Below, one piece after another: positions 960 to 30,904 of a stretch of DNA of 34,070 nt. A program made the position numbers and the translations under genes. Every line of letters begins with the position of its first letter. Position 1 is the first letter of the stretch. Under the pieces are notes generated by a model. It was not told the origin of the DNA, ran no database searches, and saw nothing but the letters and a program-made list of their open reading frames with translations. The DNA comes from a virus. The DNA lies in the IMG/VR virus record IMGVR_UViG_3300021471_000162; one strand, written 5' to 3'.

Positions 960-1160
960 ATGGCAACGTACACAAAACAAGCAAATGGCATCACTACCGC
1001 AATCTCAATCGGGAGGGCAGCAGAGGATAGCTATATTTCAGTCCAGATCAGATCGCACAAGGGGCTTGAGATCATTGAAGGAGCGCATATCTGGATTCCA
1101 GTAACGGAATTTCAGAAACTCTGTGAGGCAGCAATCAAAGAGGCGGGGCAATCCGCCTGA
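960..1160 (+). CDS. Small hypothetical early protein
   Basis: RBS GGAGA upstream; ORF ends inside hairpin repeat 1 (EAGQSA*). Confidence 0.7.
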   Translation: MATYTKQANGITTAISIGRAAEDSYISVQIRSHKGLEIIEGAHIWIPVTEFQKLCEAAIKEAGQSA

Positions 1161-1183
1161 TATTTTTCGAGGTGAGATAAATG
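1142..1183 (+). repeat. Hairpin-T tract-RBS repeat, copy 1
   Basis: GGCGGG-GCAA-TCCGCC tgatatttttc GAGGTGA gataa ATG. Confidence 0.9.
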
Positions 1184-1396
1184 AGTTCCGAGAAATACAT
1201 CAACTACCGCTGCGCAGCTGATCGGCGCATTATGACAATCTCGATCTTGGCATCGAGCAAAGCTAAGTTCGTCATGTTCCAGTTGTGGCTCAAAGAACAT
1301 CGCCCCGGACGAGAGTGGTACCAGGGCGAGGTGATGGATGAGATCATCAGCGACTCCACATTATGGAGAGAATTCCTCGCACAGGAGGTACGATAA
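1181..1396 (+). CDS. Small hypothetical protein
   Basis: 71 aa; starts at the ATG of repeat 1. Confidence 0.75.
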   Translation: MSSEKYINYRCAADRRIMTISILASSKAKFVMFQLWLKEHRPGREWYQGEVMDEIISDSTLWREFLAQEVR

Positions 1397-1524
1397 TGGC
1401 ACGCATCTTGGTCATCAAGAACCTGCCAGACGGCGCAGATGCCGAATGGGTGCAGGACGGATTGCGGCGGATGCTCGGTGATGACATCGAGATACAACAG
1501 ATCGCGATCGAGGAGACAGCGTAG
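1396..1524 (+). CDS. 42-aa hypothetical protein (not in track)
   Basis: MARILVIKNLPDGADAEWVQDGLRRMLGDDIEIQQIAIEETA; GGAGG RBS; stop overlaps hairpin 2. Confidence 0.65.
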   Translation: MARILVIKNLPDGADAEWVQDGLRRMLGDDIEIQQIAIEETA

Positions 1525-1565
1525 GCGGGATCACCCGTCTACACTTTTCAGAGGTGAGAGAAATG
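1524..1565 (+). repeat. Hairpin-T tract-RBS repeat, copy 2 (diverged)
   Basis: GGCGGG-ATCA-CCCGTC tacacttttca GAGGTGA gagaa ATG. Confidence 0.75.
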
Positions 1566-1799
1566 ACCATAAGAACAATATGCGAAATATGTGGCAAAGT
1601 GGTCGCATACACGGACCCGAATCAGCAAGCGTTCGAGGCTATCAACAACCCTGATCAGTTCTGCGAATGCATGATCGATGCAGAGCACATCAAATCGTTG
1701 ATGGAGGAAGGGTACACGATCAACGAGGTAGCCGAGACAATGAACCACTCGAGAGATTGGGTTCAAAAGAGAATTGATCTGGCGGAGCAATCCGCCTGA
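1563..1799 (+). CDS. Small Zn-finger plus HTH protein
   Basis: CEIC...CEC, then GYTINEVAETMNHSRDWVQKRI HTH-like; ends AEQSA* in hairpin 3. Confidence 0.7.
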   Translation: MTIRTICEICGKVVAYTDPNQQAFEAINNPDQFCECMIDAEHIKSLMEEGYTINEVAETMNHSRDWVQKRIDLAEQSA

Positions 1800-1823
1800 A
1801 TTTTTCAAGAGGTGAGAAAAATG
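1781..1823 (+). repeat. Hairpin-T tract-RBS repeat, copy 3
   Basis: GGCGGA-GCAA-TCCGCC tgaatttttcaa GAGGTGA gaaaa ATG. Confidence 0.9.
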
Positions 1824-2090
1824 AGATGCAAAGTATGTGGACACGAGGCGGAGGAGTGTGTTGATTGCAGCTCACTGCTCTGTCAGAATCCAGATTGTGA
1901 TGCAGTCGGAACAGTGGTCGTTTTGGCGGCAGATCCTTGCGAAAACTGCAAGAAAAACGTTCTTCCTGCACAGATCGCAGTTGATCACATATACACAGAC
2001 TTCAACGATGTCGTTAATGACGCTGACGAAGTATCGATGATAATCAAGCACCCTGTGACCATCTGCTCGGCGGAGCAATCCGCCGATTAA
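1821..2090 (+). CDS. Cys-rich Zn-binding protein
   Basis: CKVC, CVDC, CQNPDC, CENC motifs; ends SAEQSAD* in hairpin 4. Confidence 0.75.
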   Translation: MRCKVCGHEAEECVDCSSLLCQNPDCDAVGTVVVLAADPCENCKKNVLPAQIAVDHIYTDFNDVVNDADEVSMIIKHPVTICSAEQSAD

Positions 2091-2109
2091 TTTCAGAGGT
2101 AAGATAATG
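2069..2109 (+). repeat. Hairpin-T tract-RBS repeat, copy 4
   Basis: GGCGGA-GCAA-TCCGCC gattaatttca GAGGTAA gata ATG. Confidence 0.9.
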
Positions 2110-2343
2110 AATATTGAAACAGCAAGAATTGATGGTGGGATGAATATCCCACAGATTCGAGACGAAATAAAAATCTGTGAACGGATTAAGCGAGAAGAGA
2201 TAAACCGAGTTCACAGACTTAAAGCGGAAATGGAAAAAGCATTTCGTATTATTTCAACTATGGATCAAGAAATTAAAGAATTCAATAATGAGATAAGAAA
2301 AATTGAATCACAGGAGACTAACAGAACGAATGACGCACAGTAA
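2107..2343 (+). CDS. Small coiled-coil protein
   Basis: 78 aa, charged heptad-like pattern. Confidence 0.7.
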   Translation: MNIETARIDGGMNIPQIRDEIKICERIKREEINRVHRLKAEMEKAFRIISTMDQEIKEFNNEIRKIESQETNRTNDAQ

Positions 2344-2348
2344 CACAA

Positions 2349-2390
2349 GGCGGAGCAATCCGCCTAATATTTTCCGAGGTGAGATCAATG
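2349..2390 (+). repeat. Hairpin-T tract-RBS repeat, copy 5
   Basis: GGCGGA-GCAA-TCCGCC taatattttcc GAGGTGA gatca ATG. Confidence 0.9.
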
Positions 2391-2546
2391 ACGACAATAA
2401 TCTGCTGTAAGTGCGGCAAAGAAGCGCAGATCAGCCAGGACAAACGATTGGCTGTCTGCATGAACATTGAGTGTGGAAATTGGAAGAAATTCGCTAAGAT
2501 CGGCAGCGCATTTTTCCATGTAAATTACATGGAGGTGGCGGGGTGA
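2388..2546 (+). CDS. 52-aa Zn-ribbon protein (not in track)
   Basis: MTTIICCKCGKEAQISQDKRLAVCMNIECGNW...; starts at the ATG of repeat 5. Confidence 0.7.
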   Translation: MTTIICCKCGKEAQISQDKRLAVCMNIECGNWKKFAKIGSAFFHVNYMEVAG

Positions 2547-9279: not shown

Positions 9280-9636
9280 TCAAAGGTTCGACTCCATATC
9301 GTGTATTCGATATTCCTTCTCGGCGCAACATGAACACAACACACGCCCATAGCAGCAAATCACATTCCGTTCTTTCCCGCATTCATCACATGGGTAATCC
9401 GTGATACCGCCATACAATCCCCTGATCAGCGCGTCTCTGTCATCTGTGACAACCCCGATCGGCAGATCGTCCACTTTCGCATCACGCATCCAACGAACCC
9501 TTATATCGATCCAATCACCGATAGACAGTTCGCCAGAATCATGCATAATCTTCTTCGCTTCCTTTGCAGACGTCGCCACGACTGCAAAACCCCACCATTC
9601 GTCGCTATTATGTACGAAATATCCTCTTTTATTCAT
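9280..9636 (-). CDS. Hypothetical protein with C-terminal Zn finger
   Basis: CDEC...CSCC; GAGGTGA RBS before ATG 9636. Confidence 0.65.
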   Translation of the reverse strand: MNKRGYFVHNSDEWWGFAVVATSAKEAKKIMHDSGELSIGDWIDIRVRWMRDAKVDDLPIGVVTDDRDALIRGLYGGITDYPCDECGKERNVICCYGRVLCSCCAEKEYRIHDMESNL

Positions 9637-9660
9637 TTCTCTCACCTCTTTTGACTGATC

Positions 9661-9894
9661 TCACCACGACAACCTTCCGGTTTTGATACATTTGCCACAA
9701 TACGATCCATCCTCTTCCGTGCAGGACTGGTCTTTCCATTCGCCATGCCAGAATGTCTCTTTGAAAGATCGATACCCCATCGCCCACATAGCGAGGTTTG
9801 CCCAGCAGGCTTCAGGATGGGTATCATCTATGTAGTCTGCGATTCTAAACCGGATACGTTCTGCTAATTTCATTTGAGCACCTCGATCATACAA
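9661..9894 (-). CDS. Small Cys-containing hypothetical protein
   Basis: YCGKC motif; operon position. Confidence 0.55.
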   Translation of the reverse strand: MYDRGAQMKLAERIRFRIADYIDDTHPEACWANLAMWAMGYRSFKETFWHGEWKDQSCTEEDGSYCGKCIKTGRLSW

Positions 9895-10099: not shown

Positions 10100-10276
10100 C
10101 TACAGAAACCTCTCTCTCAACATCTCATCGATGTGTTGCAGTTCATCAACAACAGATAACGCATCTGCATCGTTACGATCCCAGTACAGTTTCACATCCC
10201 ACGCATACTCACCCTTCGCATTGCGTTTTAGGGTGACGCTGTCCCGTTTCTCGTATTGTAGTTGTGCTTCTTCCAT
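10100..10276 (-). CDS. 58-aa hypothetical protein (not in track)
   Basis: MEEAQLQYEKRDSVTLKRNAKGEYAWDVKLY...; overlaps upstream stop; followed by GAGAGAGG/CCTCTCTC hairpin. Confidence 0.65.
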   Translation of the reverse strand: MEEAQLQYEKRDSVTLKRNAKGEYAWDVKLYWDRNDADALSVVDELQHIDEMLRERFL

Positions 10277-11193
10277 CACGCCACCACCTTAATCTTCGGA
10301 TACTTCGTTTTCACGAGCTCGCTCCCGAATTCTTTGATCAGCGCCACGATCATCACCGGAGCGCATATCGGCTTCAGGAAGCACGATGCGTCGCTGTAGA
10401 CGTATTCGCCGTCCGGCGTGCACCATACGTTGTATTGGTTCACTCTGTAGTGCGTACCGCTCTTGTCCATCGTCTCAACTTCGTATTCGTTGAGCCCCAG
10501 TTCATCCCACGCAGGATCGTCTTTCGTCGGCACCTGTGTTCCAACCAACGCCTTTCCTTCCGGAAGCTCGTGGATGTTGTCGGCGGTTGGAGATGATTCC
10601 CCCTTCGCAGGCGGTTTCGTGTTTTGTGGAGGCGCAGGGGCATCATCTGCCCCGCCTTCCATGCTTGTCTCGATCTCCTCTGCCGACACATCACCTGATC
10701 CGAGAAGATCACTGATGCCGCGGTTGATGGCTACGGTCTGTGCCTTGAGCATGATGTTCGCCTCATCCGCCATAACCTTGCCACCCTTCGTGAAGAACTT
10801 ATCCCGTGATGTACAGACTCCTTCCGATGTCACCGATGCGCCGCACGGATGCGACACGGTGACGAGATATGTCCAGATGTAGTACGCTCCTTTTGCATCC
10901 TCCACCCAGATTTTTTCTCGATGCAGTACATTCACGGACAGTCCGAAGAATCGTGCCATCTTGCGCCATCCCGACTTCTTGATGTATGGCGTGGCGCTAG
11001 GTGATGTTTTCTCCGTCGGCAGTCCATTTGCCCCGATGTACAACACATCGGCATTTGTCAGTAGCCTCGCCTTCGCTTTTTCATAGAGCTCGAAAGCGTG
11101 GACTGCCTCATCGATCGATACAGCGGCATCCAGGAATCCTGGCTGAACCGCGGTATCTTCCTTTTTCATGATGTTTGTGTTTTCTTGTGTCAT
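10276..11193 (-). CDS. Putative single-strand annealing protein (Rad52/Sak/ERF-like)
   Basis: YIKKSGWRKMARFFGLS...SEGVC...KAQTVAINRGISDLLG followed by a low-complexity linker. Confidence 0.55.
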   Translation of the reverse strand: MTQENTNIMKKEDTAVQPGFLDAAVSIDEAVHAFELYEKAKARLLTNADVLYIGANGLPTEKTSPSATPYIKKSGWRKMARFFGLSVNVLHREKIWVEDAKGAYYIWTYLVTVSHPCGASVTSEGVCTSRDKFFTKGGKVMADEANIMLKAQTVAINRGISDLLGSGDVSAEEIETSMEGGADDAPAPPQNTKPPAKGESSPTADNIHELPEGKALVGTQVPTKDDPAWDELGLNEYEVETMDKSGTHYRVNQYNVWCTPDGEYVYSDASCFLKPICAPVMIVALIKEFGSELVKTKYPKIKVVA

Positions 11194-27158: not shown

Positions 27159-29321
27159 TTAGTAGGTAAGCCGACCGCCAATAATAACACCGTCATCCGA
27201 GGCAGCGCAATCCGCATGCACGCAGAACGCCCCAGCGCTCGCACCGCTACTCGCATGACCGCCCAGCCCGACAACGCGCCAACCGGTATTTTGCCAGTAA
27301 TAGTCACAGATATAAGAACTGGCGGTACCGACAGATGCTGGGAGGAATCCGCGGTCCGTATCACATAAAGTTATTTGCCAATTATTTGTGGATGCGAGGG
27401 TTACACCGATATCGGTGTACCCGACACTGGTATCATCAGCCCAAGCAGATGCATTGTTCGTGACGTAAGGGGAATGGTCGTAGATATTGATGCCGTCTAC
27501 CCATTTCCATACATTGCCATACCAGTTTTCAATACCACGATACGTCATGTACGCGTCATTCGTGTTGCCACCGACTGAGTTCGTGCCATCACCGTCGCCG
27601 TTGGACTTGCCACACTGCCCAATGTAGCTGTCCGCTGTCCATGTTCCGCCTGATAGTTGTGTTCTTCCGTATCCTATTGCGTTCTGTGAGTCGAAGTCCG
27701 CGTATTCGATGAGGTAGAGGAGTTGCACCGCGGAGTTTAAATCGAAGTCGAGCTGCCGCCATCCTGCACCGCGCTCGAATGCCATCGCGCGGAACTCTGA
27801 CCTCCGCTCATTGGTCTTAGGGTACTCTCCTGAAATTGAACAGAGTTTGTCTCCAGATGTATACATATCGTCCGTGATGTTTGTGCTCGGAACCATCGCC
27901 CCGGTTGAGGCGTCCCACATACTCCCCTCGTACGCGCCGATGTAGCGGTAATCTACCTCTGCGCCATCTTTTATAAACGCAGGGTGTACTTCAAAGCCCG
28001 TGAGGTTGAAGCGGCTGATGTTCCATGAATGTGTTGATCCGGTGAAGGTGTGATCGAAGTAAAACTTCGGTATCTCGACCATCACCTGTCCGTCTGCACC
28101 CGATAGGTCTGCGAGTGTGCCATCCGCTTTCAGTGAGGAGTTTGCAGGGTCGAGATAGTAATTTACCGTGCCGTTGTCCCATAGCGTGCAGCGGCGGATA
28201 TGAGACCACGGAAAAATGTTGTCAAAGTCGGGCTGGGTATACGAGCCGACAGTGGTTGTGCGAACATAAGAGTTCGTTGATTCGTTCCAGTCGGTGCCAC
28301 AAGTCGTGTAGGTGTAGTTTGTACCGTTCCAGTTGAATGTGAAATAGGATAGTTCGCTAGTGGATATACTCACATTGATAGTAGTATGATTGGTGTAGAT
28401 AGTTGTTGCGTTTCCAGGAGTCGGTGAGGTGAAATTAAGTTCTGACACGTAAGCCCAAGGGTCAAGAATGAAAAAATGACCGTTAGCGATAGCTTGTGGG
28501 ATGGTTTCACTATGTGGTTTTATCGCTATATCATATTTTCCATTCCCACCGTTAGTACGGATGCGGGTGCGGATGGTATACATTTGCCCGGCATTCACAT
28601 GAGCACCTAAAATATAATACCATGTATCCTTATCATCGTAATTATAATTTACCTTTTGGAACTTACCTGAAATATCATAATAATCTACAGTTTTGTTTTG
28701 CCGTGTATGCCAATACGCAGTGTAATTCATGCCATCGGTTTCATAAGAATCGAACGCTATGACTGCTGTTGCTTCAGTCCATTCATCACAATCCAAAGTT
28801 GTGTTGTTGAGTTGCGCGCATCGCTGGTAAGTGATCGTATAACGATGTGTGTTGTAGGTATTTCCATAGTCTAGTGGAGTGGCATCGGGCGTGTTTACAA
28901 TCGATGATACGTTATAAAACCATATACGGTGGGAGGTATTATAGTACACCTTATGTGGAGCAAATAATTGAGCAGCAACCGGATAGCTATAAGAAGTGTT
29001 GAAACCGTATGCAATATCAATATCTCCACTCCAGTTTTTGGATATGAATGTCGAGTAGACCCATGTGCCCCCATATATTGAAGCAGGAGTTGCAGAAATA
29101 TAATATAAAGGGGTGTCTTCATATACTGTGTAGCCATCCGGTGTAAAAATATATGCGTTTGAATCAGTTGAGAACAATGTCGACAAAAAGAATAATAGAC
29201 CAAATACAATGATTATAGCAACAATATAATGTTTTAACCCAATTTCTTTTAGAAGAGATGGCATCTGAAGTGCCTCCAGAGGTGTATCGATTTCATGAAA
29301 GGTTTTTATGATGTTGAACAT
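27159..29321 (-). CDS. Receptor-binding protein with C-terminal C-type-lectin (FGE/DGR target-like) domain
   Basis: N-terminal TM; VEIPKFY, YIGAYEG, YRGIENWYGNVWKWVDG, terminal GG...AGAF...IGGRL. Confidence 0.75.
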   Translation of the reverse strand: MFNIIKTFHEIDTPLEALQMPSLLKEIGLKHYIVAIIIVFGLLFFLSTLFSTDSNAYIFTPDGYTVYEDTPLYYISATPASIYGGTWVYSTFISKNWSGDIDIAYGFNTSYSYPVAAQLFAPHKVYYNTSHRIWFYNVSSIVNTPDATPLDYGNTYNTHRYTITYQRCAQLNNTTLDCDEWTEATAVIAFDSYETDGMNYTAYWHTRQNKTVDYYDISGKFQKVNYNYDDKDTWYYILGAHVNAGQMYTIRTRIRTNGGNGKYDIAIKPHSETIPQAIANGHFFILDPWAYVSELNFTSPTPGNATTIYTNHTTINVSISTSELSYFTFNWNGTNYTYTTCGTDWNESTNSYVRTTTVGSYTQPDFDNIFPWSHIRRCTLWDNGTVNYYLDPANSSLKADGTLADLSGADGQVMVEIPKFYFDHTFTGSTHSWNISRFNLTGFEVHPAFIKDGAEVDYRYIGAYEGSMWDASTGAMVPSTNITDDMYTSGDKLCSISGEYPKTNERRSEFRAMAFERGAGWRQLDFDLNSAVQLLYLIEYADFDSQNAIGYGRTQLSGGTWTADSYIGQCGKSNGDGDGTNSVGGNTNDAYMTYRGIENWYGNVWKWVDGINIYDHSPYVTNNASAWADDTSVGYTDIGVTLASTNNWQITLCDTDRGFLPASVGTASSYICDYYWQNTGWRVVGLGGHASSGASAGAFCVHADCAASDDGVIIGGRLTY

Positions 29322-30049: not shown

Positions 30050-30362
30050 CTGCCACACCCTGCATCCGTCTGGATGTATTCCGGATCGTTGCCTCGCATA
30101 CACCGCTCGCTTTTGCGATATCACACTGTGTCCAAGAGGGTATACCGTCTTCGCGGTATAGACTACAGACACGACTCGTACACCATACTGCCGCAGCAGC
30201 CACAGATCGGTTTGTGGCTGATCCTATCCTATGATCCGGAACGATAGACATTACGGTATCAACAATATGTCGCGCGTCATGCTCCAGGTCGTCTTCAAGT
30301 AGCGCAGTCACGATCTGGCTGACATGTTCCTCGATTGATTTTTGTGGTTTGTATGCCATCAC
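30033..30362 (-). CDS. Mini-TFB: single C-terminal cyclin repeat of TFIIB
   Basis: SVAAAAVW...WTQCDIAKASGVCEATIRN matches TFB repeat 2 (AAAAxY...TQxEIAxxxGVTEVTIRN). Confidence 0.8.
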   Translation of the reverse strand: MMAYKPQKSIEEHVSQIVTALLEDDLEHDARHIVDTVMSIVPDHRIGSATNRSVAAAAVWCTSRVCSLYREDGIPSWTQCDIAKASGVCEATIRNTSRRMQGVADEREL

Positions 30363-30904
30363 ACAACCTCTTTCTCTCTCATTACCTCGCTCATCTCTGC
30401 GCGGCTTGGGGTTGCATAATGTTCCTGGATCACACGGATCGTGTCGCCGGTGAGTTCCGCAACCTGCTCTGGTGTCCAGCCTGCGTGCTGACAGAACTTC
30501 ACACAGGTCGAGCGCAACGCGTGGAATGGTCTGCGCGGGATGCCGGCTTTGATGCAGAGACGCTGTAGTTTACGGTAGGCAGTACTCCCAGAGAAGGCAA
30601 ACAGCATCTTCTGTTTCTTTGGAAGCGTGGCGATGTACTTCCGCATCAATTGTGTCATGTTCGCTCCGAGCGGGACTGTTCTGATCCGGTTCTTCTTCTT
30701 CTCGAAGTAAGTCATGCTCGCTTCATCGAGATTGATGTCAGCGATGCGTATATTCACGATGTCTTCACGCCTCAAGCCGAACGCAACACCCATCTTCAAG
30801 AGAAGTTCATCTTCGAGTGTGCCGGTGACCTGAAGCAGCTTTCCGAATTCTTTGTGTGTCAGGGCGAACTGCCCTGTTGTGTATGAACTATTAGGGTTCT
30901 GCAT
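30359..30904 (-). CDS. int: Minimal tyrosine recombinase/integrase
   Basis: GLRREDI (R), KKKNR (K), HALR (H-x-x-R), EHY (Y); 181 aa, no N-terminal binding domain. Confidence 0.88.
   Translation of the reverse strand: MQNPNSSYTTGQFALTHKEFGKLLQVTGTLEDELLLKMGVAFGLRREDIVNIRIADINLDEASMTYFEKKKNRIRTVPLGANMTQLMRKYIATLPKKQKMLFAFSGSTAYRKLQRLCIKAGIPRRPFHALRSTCVKFCQHAGWTPEQVAELTGDTIRVIQEHYATPSRAEMSEVMREKEVV

Follow-up and report, generated by a model that had tools for sequence, protein, structure and literature searches.

The question raised by this locus is whether a short repeat reiterated between small viral genes serves the expression of those genes, their exchange between viruses, or both. The DNA analysed (hereafter the window) is the IMG/VR virus record IMGVR_UViG_3300021471_000162, a complete circular genome of 34,070 nt with a 127-bp terminal overlap, which carries at positions 960-2546 an array of seven small open reading frames (ORFs) on the + strand with five repeat units between them. 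Comparison of sequences supports the view that genes have been gained, lost and exchanged at the unit in related viruses, as a preliminary description of this DNA had proposed from the letters of one genome. We hold, with moderate confidence, that the units are punctuation elements doubling as short-homology exchange sites, which would make the array a promoter-less, archaeal-virus counterpart of the promoter-early stem-loop (PeSL) cassettes of T4-type phages.

Structure of the units in the array

The five units are all co-oriented on the + strand and start, counting from the first base of the hairpin, at 1142, 1524, 1781, 2069 and 2349. Each is about 45 nt long and consists of a 16-nt hairpin, a stop triplet or GATTAA, a run of three to five T, a ribosome site of the form GAGGT(G/A)A, and an ATG that lies 21-24 nt 3' of the hairpin:

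1141-1183, + strand: unit 1, with the hairpin at 1142-1157 (G.U variant), TGA at 1158-1160, T5 at 1163-1167, GAGGTGA at 1169-1175 and ATG at 1181.
1518-1565, + strand: unit 2 (type-2 subtype), with the hairpin at 1524-1539 (a 9-bp stem with the flanks), T4, GAGGTGA and ATG at 1563.
1775-1823, + strand: unit 3, with the hairpin at 1781-1796, TGA, T5, GAGGTGA and ATG at 1821.
2063-2109, + strand: unit 4, with the hairpin at 2069-2084, GATTAA, T3, GAGGTAA and ATG at 2107.
2343-2390, + strand: unit 5, with the hairpin at 2349-2364 (untranslated), TAA, T4, GAGGTGA and ATG at 2388.

Four of the five hairpins share the 16-mer GGCGG(A/G)GCAATCCGCC, while that of unit 2 (at 1524) represents a separate subtype, GGCGGGATCACCCGTC, referred to here as type 2. 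All form a perfect 6-bp stem closed by a 4-nt loop, 16 nt in total and without bulges. On folding, every hairpin was both the minimum-energy and the centroid structure, with a core energy of about -12 to -13 kcal/mol, and the Shine-Dalgarno sequence was left unpaired. As the preliminary description had noted, the hairpin is read through by three of the upstream ORFs, namely 960-1160, 1563-1799 and 1821-2090, whose products end in GQSA, EQSA and EQSAD, respectively, directly before the stop, and the TAG stop of ORF 1397-1524 overlaps the first stem base of unit 2.

The units are confined to the array. Searching the window for GGCGGAGCAATCCGCC with up to three mismatches returned the four array matches and an unrelated three-mismatch match at 27201, against a chance expectation of 0.23 matches in shuffled sequences, of which none in 100 reached five. 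A covariance model (R1), trained on 60 units of relatives and then run on the window, scored the five units at 46-62 bits (unit 1 at 62 bits) and found no sixth in the 34-kb genome, the runner-up being an 18-bit match at 9630-9661 on the minus strand that corresponded to the ribosome-site part only. This is the covariance search that the preliminary description had proposed, and it upholds the statement made there that copies are lacking elsewhere in the genome. Rfam models applied at the gathering threshold gave no match in the window and only tRNAs in the relatives.

Conservation of the units among related viruses

Relatives were gathered by pattern scans of viral and metagenome collections and by a protein-based locus search, yielding about 35 related metagenomic loci (labelled L) with 70 units, of which 60 distinct ones entered the pairing analysis. 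All 70 units lie on the coding strand and are confined to the array between the anchor genes c6 and c5. The hairpin 16-mer is letter-identical in 54 of the 70, and 61 carry a T-run of at least four (T4-T7, with T5 the mode) 3' of the hairpin. Across the 60 distinct units 97.8% of cells pair, and where only one side of the stem has changed the result is a G.U pair on the sense strand in 9 of 9 cells. A compensatory change was found at one pair only (A-U to G-C), in four sequences that all belong to the type-2 subtype and probably reflect one event. The argument for selection on structure that had been drawn from compensatory pairing is weakened accordingly, and the salient trait of the hairpin is its sequence invariance rather than covariation.

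This invariance extends to copies that are translated. In 43 of 64 cases translation of the upstream ORF continues across the hairpin, always in the same frame, with the stop 3 or 6 nt behind the hairpin, so that 19 unrelated ORF families end in AEQSA or AEQSAD. Eleven other families stop before the hairpin, and their untranslated hairpins are equally conserved. Most variants of the translated copies replace an amino acid (E>G, S>P, E>D) or introduce a stop, while third codon positions are invariant; the constraint therefore acts on the nucleotides and not on the peptide.

The 16-mer also recurs outside the main group. L026 (Ga0164318_10029512; 5.3 kb, 41% G+C), a distant element, carries three units with the identical 16-mer, combined with an A/T-rich linker and an AGGAG ribosome site, and has one cassette family (c88) in common with the main group. 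Since the same 16-mer persists in so diverged an element, the hairpin crosses virus lineages within the habitat. Other searches were negative within their scope. No units were found in L012, which is related through a 505-aa protein; INPHARED phage records gave no DNA match to the array and only a distant, 31%-identity protein match to the 505-aa protein; and a locus search with the helix-turn-helix (HTH) gene alone recovered no relatives. In a scan of GTDB genomes no array was present in a host chromosome, the matches being single bacterial terminator-like sequences and L104, a short contig of the present virus group binned to a metagenome-assembled genome (MAG) of anaerobic methanotrophic (ANME) archaea of the ANME-2 group. 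About 40 of the 78 metagenome matches, together with most viral-contig matches, were single copies of a hairpin plus ribosome site in unrelated, mostly bacterial-looking elements, and were set aside as convergent terminators.

Gene exchange at the units

When ORFs were clustered into families (labelled c) and the arrays written as strings, the same cassettes appeared in many orders. The window reads c15-U-c13-U-c11-U-c23, where U denotes a unit. The cassette c13 (ORF E) is missing from L053, which reads c15-U-c11 with both flanks joined in a single unit, and from L027, which reads c15-U-c23. It stands in other contexts in L051 (c29-U-c13-U-c5, in which U-c13-U is 96% identical to the window), in L047 (c12-U-c13-U-x) and in L036, where c13-U-c11-U runs on into a different gene. 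Similarly, U-c11 and c22 each occur in three to five contexts, c22 with five upstream and three downstream partners, and the type-2 unit that follows an ORF ending in EETA recurs in L002, L013, L051, L029 and L074 with a different downstream gene each time. In L089, a 282-nt segment is duplicated with 100% identity (minus strand, 9122-8841 and 8123-7842); the duplication starts at the first hairpin base and ends just past GAGGTGAAT of the next unit.

The end-points of homology are concentrated accordingly. In the array regions, 137 of 638 unique end-points fall inside units compared with 24.6 expected (5.6-fold), with a sharp peak at -20 to +60 nt of the hairpin start. Breakpoints occur at 58 of 62 unit boundaries versus 89 of 148 unit-less gene boundaries, an odds ratio of 9.6 whose P value, like the others, is inflated because the loci are related and not independent. 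Several array variants co-occur within single metagenomes, and contigs assembled from other samples branch away from the window at 1144 and 1160. Among those contigs one joint skips from 956 to 1144, and no circle junction was found. The proposal of gain and loss at the repeat thus stands on deletions that leave a single unit, relocated cassettes, a perfect duplication and the enrichment of breakpoints, and the comparison of cassette content and order that had been suggested as its test revealed indels bounded by the unit.

Units are themselves mosaic. Sequence to the left of the hairpin tracks the upstream gene and the 6-8 nt before the ATG track the downstream gene, while the segment comprising the stop and T-tract assorts independently of both; for example, L032 and L065 have identical neighbours and a different middle segment. 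Crossovers must therefore have taken place in both the hairpin block and the ribosome-site block. Junctions between homologous and non-homologous sequence lie at the hairpin's 5' edge, in the stretch that leads from it to the ribosome site, and past that site. Judged from these alignments, such a spread fits better with short-homology recombination or gene conversion than with strand exchange at a fixed phosphodiester. The units are preferred, not exclusive, sites of change.

Candidate recombination proteins

The preliminary description had named two viral proteins as possible agents of exchange:

10276-11193, - strand: probable Rad52-like single-strand annealing protein, recognised from an AlphaFold model and Foldseek.
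30359-30904, - strand: tyrosine recombinase of 181 aa (Pfam Phage_integrase, E 1e-14), not implicated in the array.

The first of these has no Pfam or PHROG match. Its AlphaFold model reaches a predicted local distance difference test score (pLDDT) above 90 over residues about 40-160, and Foldseek against the PDB placed the N-terminal domain of Rad52 at the top (best E 1.5e-5; template-modelling score by target 0.41-0.60); nearly all matches at E up to 0.002 were to Rad52, with Mgm101 lower (E 0.003). An Atlas feature search added weak leads to Rad52_Rad22 and SSAP_Sak. On the strength of the model, we classify the protein as a probable Rad52-like annealing protein that may carry out short-homology recombination. 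In L002, C2H2 zinc fingers fused to RecT (L002:6308-7738; Pfam E 1e-28) are encoded beside the array, and the window has no RecT homologue. The annealing proteins are non-orthologous between related viruses, RecT in L002 and Rad52-like in the window. That the two proteins catalyse exchange at the units is plausible, and to that extent the earlier suggestion of an annealing protein as agent holds, backed by the Rad52-like fold and the position of RecT beside a relative's array.

The suggestion of the tyrosine recombinase fared less well. The protein is generic, it is the sole tyrosine recombinase of the genome, its gene lies on the other side of the circular junction, about 5 kb away from the array, and the crossovers do not fall at a fixed position. 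The genome also encodes an ERCC4-type nuclease.

Punctuation, exchange and alternative explanations

The units carry no sigma-70-like site, and the sole A/T-rich stretch of a unit begins about 20 nt before the ATG. Given archaeal promoter geometry (PMC8707807), a TATA box there would put the transcript start after the ATG; a promoter within the unit is ruled out on this spacing, and the array therefore forms one operon. Archaeal terminators consist of U4-7 tracts and do not need a hairpin, a single tract being weak and efficiency rising with the number of tracts (PMC8716108). The 61 units with a single T4-T7 run have the U-tract sequence required of an aCPSF1-assisted archaeal terminator. None of the RNA runs searched contained the stretch, and two metatranscriptome runs of one study had next to none of its sequence words.

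We propose that the units act as reiterated intercistronic punctuation within one polycistronic block of small accessory genes. Each would close the upstream gene and open the next by means of a 6-7-bp hairpin with a GCAA loop, a U4-U5 tract, a strong Shine-Dalgarno sequence and an ATG. The U-tract may serve as a weak, leaky archaeal terminator or as a site for aCPSF1, and the hairpin may protect the resulting 3' end. The fixed distance from stop to start, with the stop just behind the hairpin and about 20 nt before the next ATG, would allow translational restart, and where the stop lies behind the hairpin, translating ribosomes would melt it. Any gene set between two units would thus be correctly expressed. 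At the same time, the ~45-nt sequence is recurrent, direct and shared by co-occurring relatives, and is for that reason the preferred site of short-homology recombination and gene conversion, probably by virus-encoded annealing proteins, with cassette-like deletion, duplication and exchange of single genes as the outcome. A role at the RNA level is consistent with the strict orientation of the units, the G.U variants on the sense strand and the one compensatory change in type 2.

Several points weigh against this explanation, in addition to the relatedness of the loci that inflates the breakpoint statistics. Breakpoints are also present at 60% of unit-less gene boundaries, some indels lie at microhomologies inside genes (6 nt in L013 and at the end of ORF C), and selection for intact genes, not guidance by homology, may account for some of the pattern at boundaries. 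Termination, 3'-end protection and translational coupling by the unit are all inferred from its sequence. Within this set the role of the hairpin is the weakest link, as archaeal termination is not known to need one, and the invariance of the 16-mer exceeds the need of a purely structural RNA element, so that a specific binding factor may be involved.

The first two of these points would be expected if the units were expression punctuation only and the mosaic arose from illegitimate recombination anywhere, followed by selection for whole genes, without guidance by the units. The family c1 points the same way, being joined to other upstream genes without a hairpin, with homology that begins at the ribosome site. 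We nevertheless regard this explanation as unlikely, for it is opposed by the odds ratio between unit and non-unit boundaries, by deletions that leave a single unit, by the 282-nt perfect duplication, which ends inside two units and not at ORF ends, and by the independent swapping of the middle segment in otherwise identical contexts.

The invariance of the 16-mer could stem from homogenisation by recurrent crossover or from a specific binding factor. If the latter, the 16-nt hairpin and U-tract might together be a specific recognition signal, either a 3'-end signal for aCPSF1 (the archaeal CPSF73 homologue) and a hairpin-binding factor, which would formally resemble the stem-loop of eukaryotic histone mRNA, or the target of a dedicated viral recombination helper. 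We regard this reading as doubtful; if true, either version would point to an actively maintained gene-cassette system common to several archaeal virus lineages in one habitat.

A related explanation takes the invariant near-palindrome GGCGGA-N4-TCCGCC as a specific binding site. A viral HTH dimer might bind it as an operator and form a stoperator-like roadblock in the operon, or a factor from virus or host might recognise the RNA hairpin and so control the whole array. The letter-identical copies, the retention of the 16-mer in the low-GC L026, the strict orientation, the HTH genes that flank the array and the nucleotide-level constraint in translated copies would all suit such a site. In mycobacteriophages, stoperators repeat the same site at the promoter and between genes; here, no hairpin copy occurs in the region 805-959 at the probable array promoter, where a TGCGCA palindrome is present four times instead. 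Moreover, the G.U and compensatory type-2 variants are easier to reconcile with a folded sense strand than with an operator in double-stranded DNA, and the invariance has the alternative source in recurrent crossover given above. A binding site of this kind is, in our assessment, decidedly unlikely.

Nor do the data favour a dedicated site-specific cassette system in which the folded hairpin is the recombination site (integron-like, or cut by a hairpin-specific nuclease or recombinase) and a viral enzyme moves gene circles. Such a system is suggested by promoter-less ORFs in one orientation with hairpins at the 3' ends of the cassettes, by the tyrosine recombinase of the genome and by the GIY-YIG endonuclease gene in the array region of L013, and a helper protein was left open by the authors of the PeSL studies as well (PMC2839356). 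As described above, the integrase gene lies away from the array, recombination genes differ among relatives, and crossovers range over the unit from hairpin to ribosome site. A tyrosine recombinase acts on a core site with two arms of about 11-13 bp and a spacer of 6-8 bp, for which a 16-nt hairpin with a 4-nt centre is too short, and the R/L boxes and extrahelical bases of an attC site are lacking. We consider this explanation very improbable. Finally, a shared C-terminal peptide tag AEQSA(D), such as a degron or targeting tag on early proteins, might be read from the common ending of 19 unrelated families in one frame, a reading to which we give almost no credence and which is ruled out by the codon evidence, in that third positions are invariant, variants alter the amino acid or create a stop, untranslated hairpins are equally conserved, and no other frame has a stop directly behind the hairpin.

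Genes of the array and its surroundings

The array and its flanks comprise the following features:

38-769, + strand: upstream anchor gene c6, encoding a 243-aa winged-helix / TrmB-like HTH protein, with homologues 5' of the array in L013, L027, L065 and L074.
805-959, + strand: non-coding region 5' of the array (155 nt), with a TATA-like box at about 897-910 and TGCGCA palindromes at 810, 913, 931 and 940.
960-1160, + strand: cassette ORF A, 66 aa, c47/c31 family, ending in GQSA through the unit 1 hairpin.
1181-1396, + strand: ORF B, c1, paired with ORF C in most related arrays.
1397-1524, + strand: ORF C, c3, with no unit separating it from ORF B.
1563-1799, + strand: cassette ORF D, 78 aa, c15, with a CxxC motif and a weak HTH-like tail, ending in EQSA through unit 3.
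1821-2090, + strand: cassette ORF E, 89 aa, c13, Cys-rich, ending in EQSAD through unit 4.
2107-2343, + strand: cassette ORF F, 78 aa, c11, coiled-coil-like, with its stop 5 nt before unit 5.
2388-2546, + strand: cassette ORF G, 52 aa, c23, with a Zn-ribbon-like CxxC...CxxC.
2552-2776, + strand: downstream anchor gene c5, 74 aa, 3' of the array in nearly all relatives.

The array ORFs are ORFans, several of them with CxxC motifs. None of ten array ORFs gave a Pfam or PHROGs match above threshold, and the HTH matches of ORF D (E 0.01-0.04) all fall below the Pfam cut-offs. ORF E forms a single 90%-identity cluster among 5.8 billion proteins. Matches of c6 to Pfam TrmB and HTH families (E 3e-5 to 6e-4) are likewise all below the curated cut-offs.

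The non-coding region 805-959 is 92-94% identical in L074, L084, L027 and L089, and its sequence makes it the probable regulated promoter of the array. The four TGCGCA palindromes clustered around the TATA-like box, among 21 such sites in the 34 kb, are candidate operators for the neighbouring HTH protein.

Several observations concern ORFs B to D and their counterparts. In L013 (48 kb), a GIY-YIG endonuclease domain (L013:13020-13350; Pfam E 2e-9) is fused in frame to an N-terminally truncated c1, in what looks like an insertion of the homing-endonuclease type. L013:14440-14580 bears deletion scars, where the sequence passes, at a GAAATA microhomology, from the first nine codons of ORF D into a gene that also occurs in L002 and is further fused to the C-terminus of a second L002 gene. 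At L002:3262-3475 and L013:13664-13870, the 176-aa gene c8 is preceded by a conserved leader of ~200 nt, GC-rich and non-coding, in which several hairpins are predicted; the leader had no Rfam match, and both leader and c8 are absent from the window. When set against L013, the C-terminus of ORF C resembles a deletion junction, and the window seems to lack the leader and c8 because the DNA between short repeats of the GGAGAC type, at the end of this ORF, was deleted.

Elsewhere, tRNA genes (Rfam, 52-58 bits) at L013:4651-4723 and L074:2098-2170 lie near the homologue of window 6.3-6.9 kb, where the preliminary description had pointed out a tRNA-like element. The window also encodes, at 27159-29321, a 720-aa protein whose C-terminal 380 residues match PHROG 5302 ('tail protein', E 6e-92), which is unexpected for a supposedly spindle-shaped virus.

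Host, habitat and significance

The group derives from hydrothermal-vent and marine sediment, and a homologue of the annealing protein is present in a Candidatus Syntropharchaeia MAG; the hosts are probably archaea of the ANME / Syntropharchaeia type. Circular spindle-shaped viruses of ANME-1 with two genome sizes have been described from such sites, with no mention of intergenic hairpins or cassettes (PMC9894754). Habitat, circularity and the two genome sizes among the relatives suggest the Itzamnaviridae (PMC9894754) as a candidate assignment. The array genes probably act in host takeover or counter-defence.

The arrays show accessory-gene turnover in little-known viruses of methane-cycling archaea. 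The unit would represent a portable 45-nt adapter that provides an inserted gene with stop, restart and transcript punctuation as well as a recombination handle. It also provides a simple sequence tag for finding hypervariable accessory-gene arrays in metagenomes, and a compact test case of what a hairpin and U-tract contribute to translational coupling and to the formation of mRNA 3' ends in archaea.

Comparison with known systems

The preliminary description had likened the array to integron cassettes. Both have promoter-less single-gene cassettes in one orientation, a folded repeat at the cassette ends, and variable order and content. In contrast to integrons, the array has no IntI-type integrase with attI and the promoter Pc, only the generic, non-adjacent Phage_integrase; the crossover has no single fixed position; and translation signals lie within the unit. 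The 6-4-6 hairpin showed none of the attC features tested, an attC site being an imperfect palindrome of 57-141 nt with R''/L''-L'/R' boxes and extrahelical bases, so the analogy is not supported.

Conserved intercistronic hairpins that punctuate mRNA and stabilise upstream segments are familiar from the early RNase III hairpins of phage T7 and from the repetitive extragenic palindromic sequences and bacterial interspersed mosaic elements (REP/BIME) of enterobacteria. These differ from the present units in host and RNases, are untranslated and without linkage to a ribosome site, and are not known as exchange points.

Among archaeal viruses, a PeSL-like motif of the haloarchaeal tailed virus HGTV-1 has been proposed to act in regulation and shuffling (Sencilo & Roine 2014, PMC3950731), and the repeats between genes of halovirus HF2 are promoters by reporter assay, keep their positions among relatives and show no association with swapped genes (Russ et al. 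2021, PMC8707807). These viruses likewise place a conserved motif before many genes of one genome arm. There, however, the motifs are promoters with a TFB recognition element (BRE) and TATA box, whereas here they are promoter-less and consist of hairpin, U-tract and Shine-Dalgarno sequence.

The closest known system is the PeSL cassettes in the hyperplastic regions of T4-type phages (Arbiol et al. 2010, PMC2839356; Comeau et al. 2014, PMC4122927). In both, a composite of a predicted terminator-capable stem-loop and a ribosome site is reiterated between small ORFans of an early hyperplastic region, related genomes differ by indels and replacements whose limits coincide with the element, crossovers being scattered inside it, and the proposed cause is short-homology recombination carried out with viral machinery. 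PeSL elements include a consensus early promoter, which none of the units checked contains, making one operon here instead of autonomous transcription units. Mini-circles formed from one element to another are a further PeSL trait; among the assembled contigs compared here, the 956-to-1144 joint was seen but no circle junction. Further differences are the archaeal host and non-tailed virus, the usual position of the hairpin inside the upstream ORF, which gives unrelated proteins an AEQSA tail, and a 16-mer far more invariant than the GGGG...CCCC motif of PeSL. The units would thus extend the PeSL principle, in a promoter-less form, from tailed phages to a non-tailed archaeal virus.

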